Counted from the first letter of the stretch, positions 2,151 to 12,298 are shown. The stretch is 44,740 bases of DNA from a virus (IMGVR_UViG_3300009169_000014:1-44740), one strand, 5' to 3'. Notes: generated by a model from the sequence alone, not told the origin. Translations and numbers: made by a program.

Positions 2151-2320
2151 ACATCTACTACGGTTCCCAGTGGTGGTCGCAGGAAGCGAGAGATCAAGGC
2201 TTCCCACGACAAGGCTTCAACTTCTACTACTCCCCGGAGCTTGAGTACTTCTCCATCAACTTCGGCTGGGGCCGCCTTCGCCTGCACTTCTCCTGCGGCT
2301 GGGGGTGGCGTTGGCAATGA
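2147..2320 (+). CDS. small W/Y/F-rich protein (57 aa, GTG start)
   Basis: GTGA start-stop overlap with upstream gene; tail of ORF 1970..2320; high GC3. Confidence 0.3.
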   Translation: MNIYYGSQWWSQEARDQGFPRQGFNFYYSPELEYFSINFGWGRLRLHFSCGWGWRWQ

Positions 2321-2736
2321 TGACCCCCGAGCTCTACTTCCCGTGCAGAAATTGTGGGCAATGGCGGCGGCAGCACGCCGGCAAGGAGCGGAAGTGCTTG
2401 TTCCAAGCTTCCCGCTTCGAGCCGACGTGGCCGATGGAGTTCTCGGCGGCCGAACGAGAGGCGACCCTGGAGCGCATGGAGCGGTTGGACCGTCAGCTCG
2501 TGGTGCGCGCCCGACAGAAAGCCGACGACCTTGAACAGGAAATCGGCAAGATTCACGATGCTGCGACGCATGGGTGTCGGCATGTCAATGATGAAGGGAT
2601 GGGGCTCTTGGAGAGGCACGCCCCCAGAGAAGGGGAGAAGTATCACGTCATCTGTTCACTCTGCGGGGAGGATTGGTATGAAAATGAAGAAGGCGAAAAG
2701 CTTCACCCAGAAGGAACTGCTGGAACTGGCGAATGA
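2317..2736 (+). CDS. zinc-ribbon protein with two CxxCG..H modules (CRNCGQWRRQHAGKERKCLF; CSLCGEDW..H)
   Basis: ATGA overlap with upstream stop; first module is the recurring CxxCG-x5-H-x-GK-x-KCLF motif. Confidence 0.55.
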   Translation: MMTPELYFPCRNCGQWRRQHAGKERKCLFQASRFEPTWPMEFSAAEREATLERMERLDRQLVVRARQKADDLEQEIGKIHDAATHGCRHVNDEGMGLLERHAPREGEKYHVICSLCGEDWYENEEGEKLHPEGTAGTGE

Positions 2737-2968
2737 AGCCTACGACGACGGCTACCTCGCCAACTACTACACCCAGGAGGGGAAGCTGAAGAAGAACGGC
2801 TCGGGGGACACGTTGGCGAAGTTCATCGTCATCGAGCTCATCGAGACGTTCGACGCGAAGCAGACCAAAAAGCAGCAGCTCTACTACGCCGCTCAGGCCA
2901 TCGAGCGCGCCAAGGAACAGCTGTGGGATCTCCAGGGCCACTTGGAAGAGGCTCACGATGCCCTCTGA
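2678..2968 (+). CDS. hypothetical protein (96 aa)
   Basis: GGGAGG 10 nt upstream of ATG 2678; in frame with ORF 2354..2968; overlaps end of 2317 gene. Confidence 0.45.
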   Translation: MKMKKAKSFTQKELLELANEAYDDGYLANYYTQEGKLKKNGSGDTLAKFIVIELIETFDAKQTKKQQLYYAAQAIERAKEQLWDLQGHLEEAHDAL

Positions 2969-3464
2969 CGTGAAGACCTGGCGCTACTCCTTCCCCAACG
3001 TCAAGGGGGAGGGGTGGGCCATCTTCTTCCTCGATGAGACGGGCTGCTTCGCCGCGCTCAGTGACTACGGGGACTGGAGCTACCGCTGGAACCAGCGGGG
3101 GCTGCCCGAAGAGACGACGTTCCGGCACTTCCTGCTCCAGTGCGATGACGACTATATCCTGCGGAAGATCGCGCCGAGGCAGGAGTACGACCACGAAGGA
3201 ACTCTCCTCGCCGTGAAGGAGACCATCCTCGGAATGCGGCGAGAGAATCAACTCACCAAGGACGAAGCTCGAGACGAATGGGAGCTCCCCGATACCTTCG
3301 AGGGGCTTTACGACGAGTATCAGTTCTGGGGGTGGGCGAATCAGACCGAGCTGCCCGACACTCACGAACTCACTTGCTACAAGCACTCCGAACAGGCGCG
3401 GGCTTTCCTGAAGCACTGCATGCCACGCCTGCGGGAGGCGATCAAAAATGACCTGGGTCTTTGA
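2958..3464 (+). CDS. hypothetical protein (168 aa)
   Basis: ATG overlaps upstream stop (ATGCCCTCTGA); high GC3. Confidence 0.55.
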   Translation: MPSDVKTWRYSFPNVKGEGWAIFFLDETGCFAALSDYGDWSYRWNQRGLPEETTFRHFLLQCDDDYILRKIAPRQEYDHEGTLLAVKETILGMRRENQLTKDEARDEWELPDTFEGLYDEYQFWGWANQTELPDTHELTCYKHSEQARAFLKHCMPRLREAIKNDLGL

Positions 3465-3714
3465 CGGGCAGAAGGTGCTGTTCCTCTGGAAGTTCCGGTG
3501 GGTCCCCTGTGTCGTGGCTTGCGCCATGGGGGACACCGCCAGAATCGTGAATCCGCTGTTGAAGATCGACACGTGGGAAGACGTAACCAACCTCAAGGAG
3601 CTCAAAGATGACCGCAAAGAAGACGTGGCCGGGCAAGAAGGCGTTCTTCGTGCTGTGGAACCCCGACTCAACGAAGCCGAGCAAGGTCCAGTTCCAGACC
3701 CTGGAGCACGCTGA
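3448..3714 (+). CDS. hypothetical protein; coding bias supports only ~3448-3610 of this ORF
   Basis: high GC3 for first ~54 codons then drops to ~47% where overlapping frame (3608 gene) becomes ~90%. Confidence 0.35.
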   Translation: MTWVFDGQKVLFLWKFRWVPCVVACAMGDTARIVNPLLKIDTWEDVTNLKELKDDRKEDVAGQEGVLRAVEPRLNEAEQGPVPDPGAR

Positions 3715-3829
3715 ACGGGTCGGCAAGGAAATGGCCGCCAAGTACGACGAAGCCTTCATCGTGATGAAGGCCATCAAGCGGATCGAAGTTCCGCCGCCGC
3801 CGAGGTTCAAGGTAACGGACTATGAGTGA
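3608..3829 (+). CDS. hypothetical protein (73 aa)
   Basis: perfect AAGGAG 7 nt upstream; very high GC3. Confidence 0.6.
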   Translation: MTAKKTWPGKKAFFVLWNPDSTKPSKVQFQTLEHAERVGKEMAAKYDEAFIVMKAIKRIEVPPPPRFKVTDYE

Positions 3830-10418: not shown

Positions 10419-10621
10419 TGAGAGTCTCTGAGAAGAGGAAGCGCGTCTTCGCGGCCATCAAGGCGAAATACGAAGACGCGGATCTGGATGACCAGGTTCA
10501 CGAAATCATGACGCTCAGGGCTTCGGAGATCAACAACGAGGGCATCGACGCTCAGCTGGAGTTCCTGGCGACGGAGTGCGGGCTCAAGTGGCTCGAGGAC
10601 TACTACCTGAAGGAGCGCTGA
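10418..10621 (+). CDS. hypothetical protein (67 aa)
   Basis: ATG overlapping upstream stop (TGACTGATG); GC3 bias. Confidence 0.5.
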   Translation: MRVSEKRKRVFAAIKAKYEDADLDDQVHEIMTLRASEINNEGIDAQLEFLATECGLKWLEDYYLKER

Positions 10622-10911
10622 TGCCCTGCGGAGGAATCTATACGGTCAAGCCGTTGACCGAAAAGAAGGAGTGGTACGACGACTGCGCGCAATGCGGGGA
10701 GTTCACCCGTAACGGGAAGACGCCGGATCACTACGTAGAAGAGTGGGACGGCCTCATGCTCCACGGAGAGTGCGTCTTGAAGTGGCTCGTGGAAACGGAG
10801 GAAGGCCAATGCGTAAATCTGCACCTGCACGAAGTCCAAGTCGACGGAAAGGTGGTGTACGCCGAGGGGCAGGAAAGGCCCGTCGCCCCGCCACCCGTCG
10901 GTTCAACGTAG
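10621..10911 (+). CDS. zinc-binding protein (96 aa; CAQCG..HGECVL variant of recurring module)
   Basis: AAGGAGCG RBS, ATGA overlap with upstream stop. Confidence 0.55.
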   Translation: MPCGGIYTVKPLTEKKEWYDDCAQCGEFTRNGKTPDHYVEEWDGLMLHGECVLKWLVETEEGQCVNLHLHEVQVDGKVVYAEGQERPVAPPPVGST

Positions 10912-11081
10912 AGTTCCGCGGCAAGGCATGGGTGCAAGGCATCCTGACCGTCGACGCCCCGAATGAGCAGGAAGCGCGTGTCAAAGCGTTCGCCGATTAC
11001 CGGGAAACCGGCATCGTCTGGAAGTACGTCGAAGAAGACGAAGAGTTCGGCGTACGCGTCGTCGACGTGGATCCGGTATGA
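10809..11081 (+). CDS. hypothetical protein; codon bias supports only the distal part (~10880-11081, ends ..GVRVVDVDPV)
   Basis: GGAGGAAGG RBS before ATG 10809 but low GC3 until ~10880; possible -1 frame continuation of 10621 gene. Confidence 0.3.
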   Translation: MRKSAPARSPSRRKGGVRRGAGKARRPATRRFNVEFRGKAWVQGILTVDAPNEQEARVKAFADYRETGIVWKYVEEDEEFGVRVVDVDPV

Positions 11082-11671
11082 CCGCCGTACACAGCTTCCT
11101 CGTACTGGCGAGTAGCAACAACGAACACTTCAACGCTGACTGCGACTTCGCCGTTATCACGCTGACCCCGGATCTTCTGAAAAAGTTGATTCCGCTTCAG
11201 AAGGCTCACGCCGACATGACGAAGCGGCTGGAGAGCTTCTCATCGTTTGAGCTCCTGGACTGGGGCGCCTCGTTCATCTCTCGGAGAACCGCCGAAGAGT
11301 TCTTAGGCGAAGCCGCGTTCGAACAGGCAGACGACCAGGTCTCAAATGGCGATCCGTTTCTTCTCCCGCGCCGGGAAGGACATGAATTGAACATTGAAGC
11401 TCACGCCGACTACCTGGTGGTCACAGGGCGTGGCCTCTGGTGGCGTGCGCACCCTAAACACTCAGACATCACGGTCGAGAGTAACCAGATCGACTGGGTC
11501 TGGTTTACTCAGTGCATTCACTGCGGCCACCCGAAGGACGCCCACGTCAGAGGGAAGTGCCTGTTCTCCTCCACCAACTACAAGGCGTACCATGCAAAGA
11601 CTGAAAGCGCGGTTGAACATCGAAGAGTACGGAAAAAGCAGCCTCGGAAACGGAACCTGCCTGCGGTGTAA
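11078..11671 (+). CDS. hypothetical protein with C-terminal CIHCGHPKDAHVRGKCLF zinc-knuckle module (197 aa)
   Basis: ATGA overlap with upstream stop; GC3 high to ~11595 then low. Confidence 0.55.
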   Translation: MTAVHSFLVLASSNNEHFNADCDFAVITLTPDLLKKLIPLQKAHADMTKRLESFSSFELLDWGASFISRRTAEEFLGEAAFEQADDQVSNGDPFLLPRREGHELNIEAHADYLVVTGRGLWWRAHPKHSDITVESNQIDWVWFTQCIHCGHPKDAHVRGKCLFSSTNYKAYHAKTESAVEHRRVRKKQPRKRNLPAV

Positions 11672-11966
11672 GAAGCCGATCATCGCTCACGTGGGAGAGG
11701 ACTGTATGTTCGACTTCACGCAGCTTGACGCCGCTCCTTTGGAGCGCATCTTGGCGGCGCTGTTTCAAGGGAAGCTCCCGAAGGATGGAAAGTTGACCTT
11801 GGAGATCATCGGAGGAGCGTCCGTGTCCTACTTGGTCAAAGCTTCGTCGTACAAATACTCCCTCACCAACAATCCGCCGTACTACGAACTGGGTAGACTC
11901 GGCGCGACCTACGGCGCTCCGTCGGGCGTTGAAGTAGAGCTCGAACTCGTGGGGGTGGGCGGATGA
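11592..11966 (+). CDS. protein with N-terminal CLRCKKPIIAHVGEDCMF zinc-knuckle module (124 aa)
   Basis: ATG 11592 in frame of ORF 11394..11966; GC3 becomes high exactly from here; 80-nt out-of-frame overlap with 11078 gene. Confidence 0.5.
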   Translation: MQRLKARLNIEEYGKSSLGNGTCLRCKKPIIAHVGEDCMFDFTQLDAAPLERILAALFQGKLPKDGKLTLEIIGGASVSYLVKASSYKYSLTNNPPYYELGRLGATYGAPSGVEVELELVGVGG

Positions 11967-12298
11967 AGCTCCACGGGCACAAGTTCAGAGCAGATCTCAA
12001 GTACACGTTCTCCCGGTACCACCTCGAAGGCTGTACGCAGTGCGGCAAAAAAAAGGAGGAGCATGCCCACGGCAAATGCCTCTTCGAATCGACGGTGTTC
12101 AAGCCCCACGAGCTCCTGGAGTTCTTCGAGCTCCTGATGCGCAAGGGTGGTGTTCTCACCATCAAAGTAGGAACGAAGTCCCTTACCCAAAAGATCAATG
12201 GCGCCGCCATCGACCAAGGAGTGAACATGGTGATGGGGGACATCCGAGCAGAGGGTGAAGCTTTTCTAGGAGACACGGCCGATGCCCCGAAACGTTAG
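11963..12298 (+). CDS. protein with N-terminal CTQCGKKKEEHAHGKCLF zinc-knuckle module (111 aa)
   Basis: ATGA overlap with upstream stop; GC3 bias. Confidence 0.55.
   Translation: MKLHGHKFRADLKYTFSRYHLEGCTQCGKKKEEHAHGKCLFESTVFKPHELLEFFELLMRKGGVLTIKVGTKSLTQKINGAAIDQGVNMVMGDIRAEGEAFLGDTADAPKR

Follow-up and report, generated by a model that had tools for sequence, protein, structure and literature searches.

The window analysed here, a 44,740-nt stretch forming part of a ~187-kb uncultivated phage genome, encodes a protein module of ~25-40 residues, not described before, in four copies, one in each of the small plus-strand genes A, B, C and D. The module almost certainly represents a real new family, and the proteins that bear it come from a widespread clade of large, uncultivated phages. 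The original prediction had placed a CCHC module in the products of these genes, the last three consecutive, and a looser copy in the protein encoded from position 10621. All four genes are plausible ORFs with the module at the predicted peptides, and the ORF positions bear out the consecutive order of B, C and D. The features concerned are the following.

2317..2736, plus strand: gene A, ORF of 139 aa, start uncertain (GTG 2305, ATG 2317 or 2320).
2344-2403, plus strand: predicted peptide of gene A, CRNCGQWRRQHAGKERKCLF.
2344..2424, plus strand: module copy A, CRNCGQWRRQHAGKERKCLFQASRFEP, C-x2-C-x6-H-x6-C, family HMM 60.5 bits.
10621-10911: gene outside the family, real and variably present (77%-identical homologue in L071, absent from L001).
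10809..11081, plus strand: small gene without the module, directly 5' of B, start uncertain; conserved neighbour of the B-C-D cassette.
11078..11671, plus strand: gene B, ORF of 197 aa.
11513-11566, plus strand: predicted peptide of gene B, CIHCGHPKDAHVRGKCLF.
11513..11587, plus strand: module copy B, CIHCGHPKDAHVRGKCLFSSTNYKA, family HMM 57.8 bits.
11592..11966, plus strand: gene C, ORF of 124 aa, N-terminal module.
11658-11711, plus strand: predicted peptide of gene C, CLRCKKPIIAHVGEDCMF.
11658..11732, plus strand: module copy C, CLRCKKPIIAHVGEDCMFDFTQLDA, the most divergent of the four, family HMM 37.9 bits.
11963..12298, plus strand: gene D, ORF of 111 aa.
12032-12085, plus strand: predicted peptide of gene D, CTQCGKKKEEHAHGKCLF.
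12032..12106, plus strand: module copy D, CTQCGKKKEEHAHGKCLFESTVFKP, family HMM 57.2 bits.
12282..12518, plus strand: 78-aa gene without the module, directly 3' of D; conserved cassette neighbour.

Genes A to D all carry the predicted pattern C-x2-C-x6-H-x4/6-C-[LM]-F, and the likeness among the copies reaches past the predicted peptides, to C-L-F-x-[SAF]-[ST]-x-[FYL]-x-[PA]. The [LM]-F after the last Cys, followed by x-x-[TS]-x-aromatic, is fully present in copies A, B and D; copy C has M-F and T, with L at the aromatic position. A loose regular expression applied to the six frames of the window matched the four module copies only, compared with 0.067 matches per shuffled window in 300 shuffles, and the strict motif did not occur in any of 300 dinucleotide-preserving shuffles. 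Scanned over the window, the family HMM gave 38-60 bits for each of the four copies and 6.4 bits for the next best ORF. That score marks the protein encoded from 10621 as a non-member (E = 0.24; hhalign probability 6%), its CxxCG knuckle being the only part that aligns with the module. The four copies differ at synonymous sites, which identifies them as old paralogues held by protein-level selection.

An exhaustive HMM search of 1.84 billion proteins with the four-module profile returned 275 cluster representatives at E <= 1e-3; the alignment behind the family HMM contains the four window copies, and the independent check is this retrieval of 275 outside proteins by a four-sequence profile. 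One profile match, P0035, a 535-aa low-complexity repeat protein, was rejected as a false positive. Among the 150 best representatives, 149 read C-x-[NH]-C-x6-H-x3-6-(K)-C-L-F-[ED]-[SAP]-T-x-[FYW]-x-P, and the family consensus is C-x-[NH]-C-[GK]-x5-H-[AV]-x-G-K-C-L-F-[ED]-[SAP]-T-x-[FYW]-x-P; a helix frequently comes next. The identity and spacing of the Cys and His residues were conserved at all four ligands in L001, an 80%-identical relative, as well as in these 149 representatives and in 198 of 198 locus copies. Within the 199 unique copies from metagenomic loci, the ligand columns C, C, H and C are invariant (198/198), and K before the last Cys (158), L (177), F (178), T (156) and the aromatic residue (182) are also widely retained; six residues separate the second Cys from His in all 157 + 199 copies. 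Family proteins are 46-238 aa long (median 107), with the module N-terminal, in the middle or C-terminal. The module has a median net charge of 0, and the proteins a median pI of 6.5, 58% of them being acidic. For each of A, B, C and D there is a separate full-length family, and some 115 other representatives have the module alone in common. The predicted CCHC unit on otherwise unrelated small proteins is genuine and conserved.

The family is apparently confined to phages. A DNA-pattern scan of IMG/VR gave 10 in-frame matches in five contigs, four of them 168-194 kb long, and the same scan of metagenomes gave 55 stretches, 53 of which were confirmed by the HMM. Scanning 185,579 prokaryotic species genomes (596 Gb) yielded one match, HMM-negative, and tblastn with B and D found no match in 50,697 GenBank phages. 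The pattern matches in L016 (a Clostridia MAG), L031 and L066 had no HMM match and were discarded as chance. Module copies form same-strand arrays of small genes: 47 of 67 sources have at least two copies, always on a single strand, and densities reach 22 copies in 15.7 kb (L072), 14 in 4.3 kb (L070) and 13 in 14.5 kb (L015). Some uncultivated large phages have a region in which over half of the genes carry the module. Macro, R2K and DUF3846 genes were seen near module genes.

The four window proteins are built differently around the module. Gene A carries its module N-terminally, along with a helical linker and another Cys/His cluster; full-length homologues are L001 (1722-2138), P0003, P0002, P0027, P0110 and P0011. 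Its JGI gene call begins downstream of the module, at window position 2434; the longer ORF is favoured because the upstream module is conserved in all homologues. The N-terminal ~140 aa of gene B form a domain marked by a conserved S-x-N-E-H-x-NADCD motif; its module is C-terminal and accompanied by a basic tail (family members P0048, P0013, P0015, P0067, P0148, P0029 and P0104). Gene C, with full-length homologues P0004, P0030, P0023 and P0136, overlaps B by 80 nt and D by 4 nt, and its start and its overlap with B are repeated in L001 (9630-10004 and 9119-9709). In gene D a beta-hairpin precedes the module, followed by a helix and a beta-sheet; 17 full-length representatives occur among the family.

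B, C and D form a conserved cassette. Their order and spacing are kept in L001, L010, L035, L067 and L071, and partly in four further loci. Homologues of the gene directly 5' of B lie upstream of B in L001, L010, L019, L021, L044, L067 and L071, and those of the gene directly 3' of D lie downstream of D in L001, L010, L011, L021, L028 and L035. Clustering of non-module ORFs for a common partner gene, a procedure overwhelmed by the shadow ORFs that such high-GC DNA contains, returned only these cassette neighbours and one co-occurring 88-aa protein of other lineages. Genes A to D sit in a plus-strand block of small genes that converges on a minus-strand block of large genes, one of them gp5-like. 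When 1-14.6 kb was scanned for sigma-70 promoters, sites were fewer than in shuffles, a result that speaks neither for nor against early transcription.

Judged from the residues conserved, the module very probably binds one Zn2+ through the Cys pair of C-x2-C, the His and the last Cys, and it may be described as a Gag-knuckle-like zinc mini-domain, comparable to the 'Gag knuckle' fold group reportedly treated by Krishna, Majumdar and Grishin in 2003. The treble-clef fold considered in the original prediction appears poorly suited to a second half of the form H-x4-C; a Gag-knuckle type is better matched by the order of the ligands and by the short helical turn that the AlphaFold2 model of D places directly before His. 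This model has a pLDDT of 76.5, with the module region only moderately confident. The segment CLFESTVFKP is modelled as coil and is its least confident part (pLDDT 63-73), yet it is the most conserved, as would fit a segment ordered by zinc or by a partner.

The genomic context and the rare fusions point to accessory or anti-defence regions. In L074:12993-13436, an AcrIC5-like N-terminal region (PF22147 positions 3-53 of 53) precedes the module; this is a single case, at E = 1.1e-5 and 25.9 bits against a cut-off of 27, and the region is absent from the window proteins A-D, which were themselves without anti-CRISPR or anti-defence homology. Another family member joins DUF7448 to the module. 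A DNA-contacting motif of family-A DNA polymerases, T-x-TGRLSS-x2-PN, comes after the module in at least three divergent members, one of which adjoins Prim-Pol and VapE-like replication genes.

Our preferred reading, held tentatively, is that the rigid zinc module is a constant docking handle common to the family and that the variable flanks carry the activities. All members would dock onto one host or phage protein through the invariant non-ligand face K-C-L-F-[ED]-x-T-x-aromatic-x-P, the flanks would supply differing activities, and the family would consist of diversifying factors expressed from the small-gene block, with a putative role in host takeover or anti-defence. A bolder version seems unlikely: that the module is the universal docking handle of a huge-phage clade, with dozens of effectors or peptide mimics per genome on one hub, among which the Acr-like domain and the copies of the DNA-polymerase-I TGRLSS-PN motif would count. 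The arrangement would amount to a modular effector-adaptor system.

It is doubtful, though worth weighing, that the module is instead a nucleocapsid-like CCHC knuckle gripping single-stranded DNA, RNA or primer-template junctions through its conserved aromatics, which would make the family one of DNA/RNA-binding regulators or replication factors. The C-C-H-C order, the G/K after the second Cys, the H-x4-C half and the two conserved aromatic positions all recall retroviral knuckles, as does a single weak zf-CCHC_5 match (E = 0.11; 0.017). A nucleic-acid role also fits the TGRLSS-PN sub-family in its replication module better than a docking handle does. However, no zf-CCHC model was significant on any of the 123 isolated modules, the first Cys is not followed by an aromatic residue, and six residues, not four, separate the second Cys from His. 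The uncharged module and the median pI of 6.5 argue weakly against nucleocapsid-like binding, and acidic residues are conserved around His and after CLF.

Nor does a pure fold scaffold appear likely, in which the zinc core would let very short polypeptides fold and be reused by duplication with no common ligand, each paralogue's function residing wholly in its flanks. This would accommodate a module found at any position in such short proteins, together with the great diversity of partner regions and rare fused domains. The helix that often follows has a conserved aromatic that could pack on L/F, and with the conserved L, F and aromatic it could form a tiny hydrophobic core, which would explain their conservation in the absence of a shared partner. 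The non-ligand positions N/H (after the first Cys), G-K (before the last Cys) and E/D and T (after CLF), however, nearly equal the hydrophobic ones in conservation, and such polar and charged conservation across paralogues that share nothing else exceeds the needs of a generic zinc knuckle.

A redox, Fe-S or heme site in place of structural zinc, or a chance or compositional artefact, is very improbable: a set of three Cys and one His could, in principle, bind other metals, but the pattern is not CXXCH, His lying six residues past the second Cys, there is no CDGSH or Rieske pattern, and chance is excluded by the empty shuffles and the 275 database representatives.

Membership of a known family (zf-CCHC, Lar, Ogr/Delta, DksA/TraR, IS1595-type ribbons or treble-clef fingers) is hardly credible, as Pfam, NCBIfam, PHROGs and PDB sequences gave no cover for the module as a known zinc ribbon or zinc finger. 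The matches that did occur were generic CxxC-knuckle ones (ribosomal S14/S29, E = 0.1-1, and sporadic single Pfam matches), and no family recurs among the 99 full-length members or the 123 modules, even at E <= 10, and the spacing fits none of the candidates. The best zf-CCHC match, to zf-CCHC_5, involved one module only (E = 0.017-0.11; 12.7 bits against a cut-off of 27), and the module departs from the retroviral C-x2-C-x4-H-x4-C spacing of PF00098 and its relatives. It also lacks the second C-x2-C or C-x2-H knuckle of a zinc ribbon, having H-x4-C in the second half, and no zinc-ribbon model recurs. Neither the module nor the B and D families gave a match in PDB sequence profile searches, and a literature search for the motif found nothing. 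Matches of D to DUF1660 and phrog_2670 (E ~0.1) were set aside, as they cover its N-terminal MKLHGHKF and not the module.

The module offers a clean, easily recognised marker of a family that Pfam, NCBIfam, PHROGs and the PDB do not reveal, and its definition gathers hundreds of small 'hypothetical' ORFs into a single testable family. At 27 residues it is a target for structural and zinc-binding work and a bait for a common partner. If the reading as a handle with variable effectors is true, the family would show the way in which huge phages arrange and diversify their repertoires for host takeover or anti-defence; should it be wrong, the module is still a new domain, within one widespread phage clade only.

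Among known systems, the retroviral CCHC knuckle shares with the module the Cys-Cys-His-Cys order, a C-x2-C usually followed by G/K, the H-x4-C second half and a core of ~18 residues. The module differs in the x6 between the second Cys and His, in lacking both net charge and the aromatic after the first Cys, in its invariant L-F-[ED]-[SAP]-T-x-aromatic-x-P extension, and in occurring in phage proteins, whereas the retroviral-type knuckle occurs in retroelement proteins. Ogr/Delta, Lar and DksA/TraR-like proteins are, like the module proteins, small, phage-encoded, metal-stabilised and set among small accessory genes. The Ogr/Delta C4 activators, Lar and the DksA/TraR-like proteins differ in using Cys4 ligand sets that are spaced otherwise and in normally occurring as a single copy; they have no HMM similarity to the module, and Lar and dksA_traR each match one of 99 family members, outside the module. 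We know of no modular effector-adaptor system in phages, although the kind is known from eukaryotic large viruses. The poxvirus ankyrin/F-box proteins and the ASFV MGF are multigene families of large viruses in which one constant module is joined to variable partners. Their hosts, folds and size scales are wholly different, and the likeness is one of analogy, not homology: as in the module family, diverged paralogues stand in tandem same-strand arrays and combine a constant module with variable remainders.

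The window carries four copies of a Cys-Cys-His-Cys (CCHC) module, a unit of 25-40 residues with the pattern C-x2-C-x6-H-x4/6-C-[LM]-F, in genes A to D:

2344-2403, plus strand: module A, in gene 2317-2736
11513-11566, plus strand: module B, in gene 11078-11671
11658-11711, plus strand: module C, in gene 11592-11966
12032-12085, plus strand: module D, in gene 11963-12298

All four peptides quoted in the original prediction are present exactly, in the genes to which they had been assigned, and a permissive regular expression run over all six frames of the window matched these four copies and no others. 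When the window was shuffled 300 times with dinucleotides preserved, the permissive pattern occurred 0.067 times per shuffle and the strict pattern not once; chance as the source of the motif is effectively excluded. The likeness among A-D runs past the last Cys ([LM]-F-x-x-[ST]-x-[FYL]-x-[PA]), and most synonymous positions differ between the copies at the DNA level, implying old paralogues conserved as protein rather than recent repeats.

A fifth, looser copy had also been proposed in the protein encoded at 10621-10911. It was rejected as a member, with a noise-level score against the family HMM (6.4 bits, E = 0.24) and an hhalign probability of 6%, the alignment covering CxxCG alone. The observation thus stands for four copies, and its interpretation is supported in part. 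The 10621-10911 ORF is a real, variably present gene, also called by JGI, whose product is 77% identical to that of L071:684-1013 (L numbers denote viral or metagenomic loci) and has its own conserved pattern, C-x2-C ... H-G-x-C-V-L-K-W. No homologue occurs in L001, the closest relative of the window, and at its 3' end the gene shares ~100 nt with the conserved gene that follows (10809-11081), within the long N-terminal extension of the latter.

The module is a real, strongly constrained and previously undescribed CCHC unit. In L001, a 190-kb IMG/VR contig with ~80% protein identity, all four genes are present, their order is unchanged and every Cys and His is kept. A profile built from the alignment of the four window modules and searched exhaustively against 1.84 billion cluster representatives retrieved 275 proteins at a threshold of E <= 1e-3, of which 6 reached E <= 1e-10; the motif was carried by 149 of the 150 best representatives, the exception being a low-complexity repeat protein. 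The consensus of 157 copies was C-[RAVK]-[NH]-C-[GK]-x5-H-[AV]-[DE]-G-K-C-L-F-[ED]-[SAP]-T-x-[FYW]-x-P, with a His-to-Cys spacing of 4 in 128 copies, 5 in 21, 6 in 5 and 8 in 3. An independent set from metagenomic and viral loci comprised 199 unique copies, located first with a DNA pattern and then with the HMM in neighbouring ORFs. All four ligand columns were invariant here (198/198), and conservation extended to the Lys before the last Cys (158 copies), Leu (177), Phe (178), Thr (156) and the aromatic residue (182). Family proteins are 46-238 aa long (median 107), with the module in N-terminal (70), central (57) or C-terminal (30) position, and several have two or three copies.

The search of reference databases found no known family that covers the module (Pfam, NCBIfam, PHROGs, PDB sequences), and its membership in one is effectively excluded. 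Proteins A-D had no significant match in Pfam or PHROGs, 99 full-length members gave no recurrent family in Pfam, PHROGs or NCBIfam, and 123 isolated modules matched at most two members per Pfam family at E <= 10, all of them generic Cys-rich models. Profile searches of PDB sequences returned CxxC-knuckle noise only, tblastn with B and D as queries found nothing at E <= 1 in 50,697 GenBank phage records, and literature searches on the module motif found nothing relevant. Cluster members came from JGI, ENA and Logan metagenomes only, the best name among them being 'hypothetical protein'.

The distribution of the family was surveyed with an in-frame degenerate pattern of 62 nt encoding C-x-[NH]-C-x6-H-x3-K-C-L-F-x2-T, which an estimated ~40% of the family meets. 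IMG/VR yielded 10 stretches on five contigs, of which four are 168-194 kb long, and JGI/ENA metagenomes yielded 55 stretches, 53 of them HMM-confirmed, from assemblies that we take, judging by record names, to be of freshwater sediment, peat and groundwater. Across 185,579 bacterial and archaeal species genomes (596 Gb), a single pattern stretch was found, equal to chance expectation and with no HMM match. The family therefore appears to be restricted to phages that are non-integrated and uncultivated, and its module to one clade of large phages among them.

The copies are grouped in arrays of small genes that lie on one strand. The 53-kb contig L072 has 22 copies within 15.7 kb, where they make up more than half of the called genes; L070 has 14 in 4.3 kb, L015 has 13 in 14.5 kb and L020 has 7 in 2.6 kb. 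At least two copies occurred in 47 of 67 sources and copies on both strands in none, and the 190-kb relative has three separate module regions with at least 10 copies in the ~40 kb inspected. The family has been hugely expanded by duplication, and the module sits on many unrelated small proteins: each of the four window proteins has a separate family of full-length homologues, and ~115 of 150 representatives have the module alone in common. The array-rich loci share no protein with the window apart from the module family, and GC content ranges from 49 to 67%, so the module has spread, or persisted, well beyond the close relatives of the window.

The three consecutive, overlapping genes B, C and D form a cassette whose order and module spacing (~150 and ~365 nt) recur in L001, L010, L035, L067 and L071, and in part in L019, L021, L028 and L044; a small gene lacking the module flanks it on either side. 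An 83-aa protein at 10167-10418 is very acidic at its N-terminus (NEDDDDDVDYGDPHDQDFDE) and has a C-x2-C...C-x2-C zinc ribbon at its C-terminus, with weak matches to ribbons of the IS1595, TFIIB and Lar-like types; several loci conserve it upstream of the cassette. Genes B and C share 80 nt (11592-11671), read in different frames, as they do in L001. The basic tail of B after the module, ending in RRVRKKQPRKRNLPAV, is lineage-specific, since other B-family members end right after the module. Residues 1-140 of B (11078-11500) contain S-x-N-E-H-x-N-A-D-C-D, GFWW and PKH motifs conserved in the B family, which could be an active site; this N-terminal domain had no Pfam, PHROGs or PDB match. Gene A encodes a second Cys/His cluster at residues 87-122 (2575-2682), G-C-x-H ... 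H-x-I-C-x-L-C-x-E-D-W-Y-E, which is invariant in all seven A-family members and so probably forms a further metal site, different in type from the module.

The modules of the window lie in a plus-strand block of small genes (1-14.2 kb) that converges on a minus-strand block of large genes, one of which has a T4 gp5-like spike region. The following features accompany them:

494-516, 5272-5302, 6409-6450 (18 bp, the longest) and 7975-7996, plus strand: strong GC-rich hairpins followed by T-runs
3822-4418, small-gene block: sigma-70 region-4-like HTH with an N-terminal CPHPNCANC motif
6528-6831, plus strand: tRNA-Thr(TGT) and tRNA-Gln(TTG), within a tRNA cluster spanning this interval
6680-6751, minus strand: third tRNA, Rfam-confirmed, with an abnormal anticodon loop in ARAGORN
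6754-6831, minus strand: fourth tRNA call, by ARAGORN only, with no Rfam confirmation
8757-9062, small-gene block: DUF3846 gene (84 bits)
13141-13443, small-gene block: small Cys-rich protein (phrog_3207)
13368-14201, small-gene block: metallophosphoesterase (phrog_1649, E = 2e-46)
37858-39759, minus strand: 633-aa protein

Terminator-like sites were about twice as common as in shuffles (31 versus 15.4), which suggests several transcription units inside the small-gene block. The 633-aa protein lacks any Pfam domain, and GenBank phages gave no match to it; its homologues in metagenomes number more than 900 (the best 120 at 55-82% identity) and lie on contigs of up to 376 kb, and an identical protein is encoded on a 187,070-bp contig. 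The large minus-strand ORFs have almost no PHROGs or Pfam matches. The window is therefore part of a ~187-kb genome from a large uncharacterised phage clade.

Domain fusions with the module are rare and varied. L074:12993-13436 has an AcrIC5-like N-terminal region (PF22147; E = 1.1e-5, 25.9 bits, just below the cut-off of 27) followed by the module, L072:11594-12079 combines DUF7448 (63.5 bits) with a C-terminal module, and one family member matches DUF1281_C. Neighbours of module genes include Macro, R2K ATP-grasp, DUF4326, DUF3846 and metallophosphoesterase genes, which are typical of accessory or anti-defence regions; in L070, a metallophosphoesterase-like fragment abuts the 14-copy array. 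Six loci from other lineages (L055:125-595(-), L036, L050, L057, L061 and L073:9351-9617) encode, beside their module genes, a conserved protein of ~88 aa with a ...PPIAGG diglycine end; PDB sequences gave no match to this protein, and the window lacks it.

Given this genomic setting and these fusions, we tentatively favour a mechanism in which the module would be a constant docking handle, bringing variable effector parts to one common partner, and the handle-borne effectors would act in host takeover or anti-defence. The same direction is indicated by polar, surface-type positions conserved about as strongly as hydrophobic ones, and by low prediction confidence for the conserved tail, a frequent trait of segments that a partner orders.

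Binding of nucleic acids by the module seems unlikely, although the knuckle type and aromatic residues would suit it, as would a sub-family with a polymerase motif. At least three divergent members, of only ~85-220 aa, carry T-x-TGRLSS-x2-PN(L/I/V) 10-25 residues after the module; this is the conserved motif through which family-A DNA polymerases contact DNA. The entries are L073:8001-8669 (protein representative P0006), L018:239-814(-) (P0101), L014:8313-8591(-) and L025:1162-1323(-). The expression TGR[LIVM]S[ST] matched 4 of 8102 six-frame ORFs across the loci, three of the four being module ORFs, and one such member adjoins Prim-Pol and VapE-like genes; the window has no copy of this sub-family. 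The motif possibly acts as a decoy or peptide mimic, possibly binds DNA ends, or is possibly a fragment of a polymerase gene. Against nucleic-acid binding, the module is neutral on average and the median pI across the family is 6.5, with 58% of members acidic. A purely structural scaffold would account for the hydrophobic conservation and the positional freedom of the module, and we consider it doubtful as well. A new domain without an assigned role is not rare in phage dark matter, but the sharp motif, phage-only distribution, extreme copy number and conserved B-C-D cassette make this one a good, directly testable target.

From its sequence, the module is predicted to bind zinc in a Gag-knuckle-like fold. 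In many members the sequence goes on as P-M-T-x-E-E-[WF]; this resembles the beginning of a helix, with an aromatic residue that could pack on the L/F pair. Judged by sequence pattern and DSSP only, the module resembles the Gag-knuckle group in ligand order and in its H-x4-C second half more than it resembles zinc ribbons or treble clefs. The neutral module and acidic-leaning family differ in charge from nucleocapsid knuckles, and the family is a new one within the known kind of CCHC zinc knuckle.
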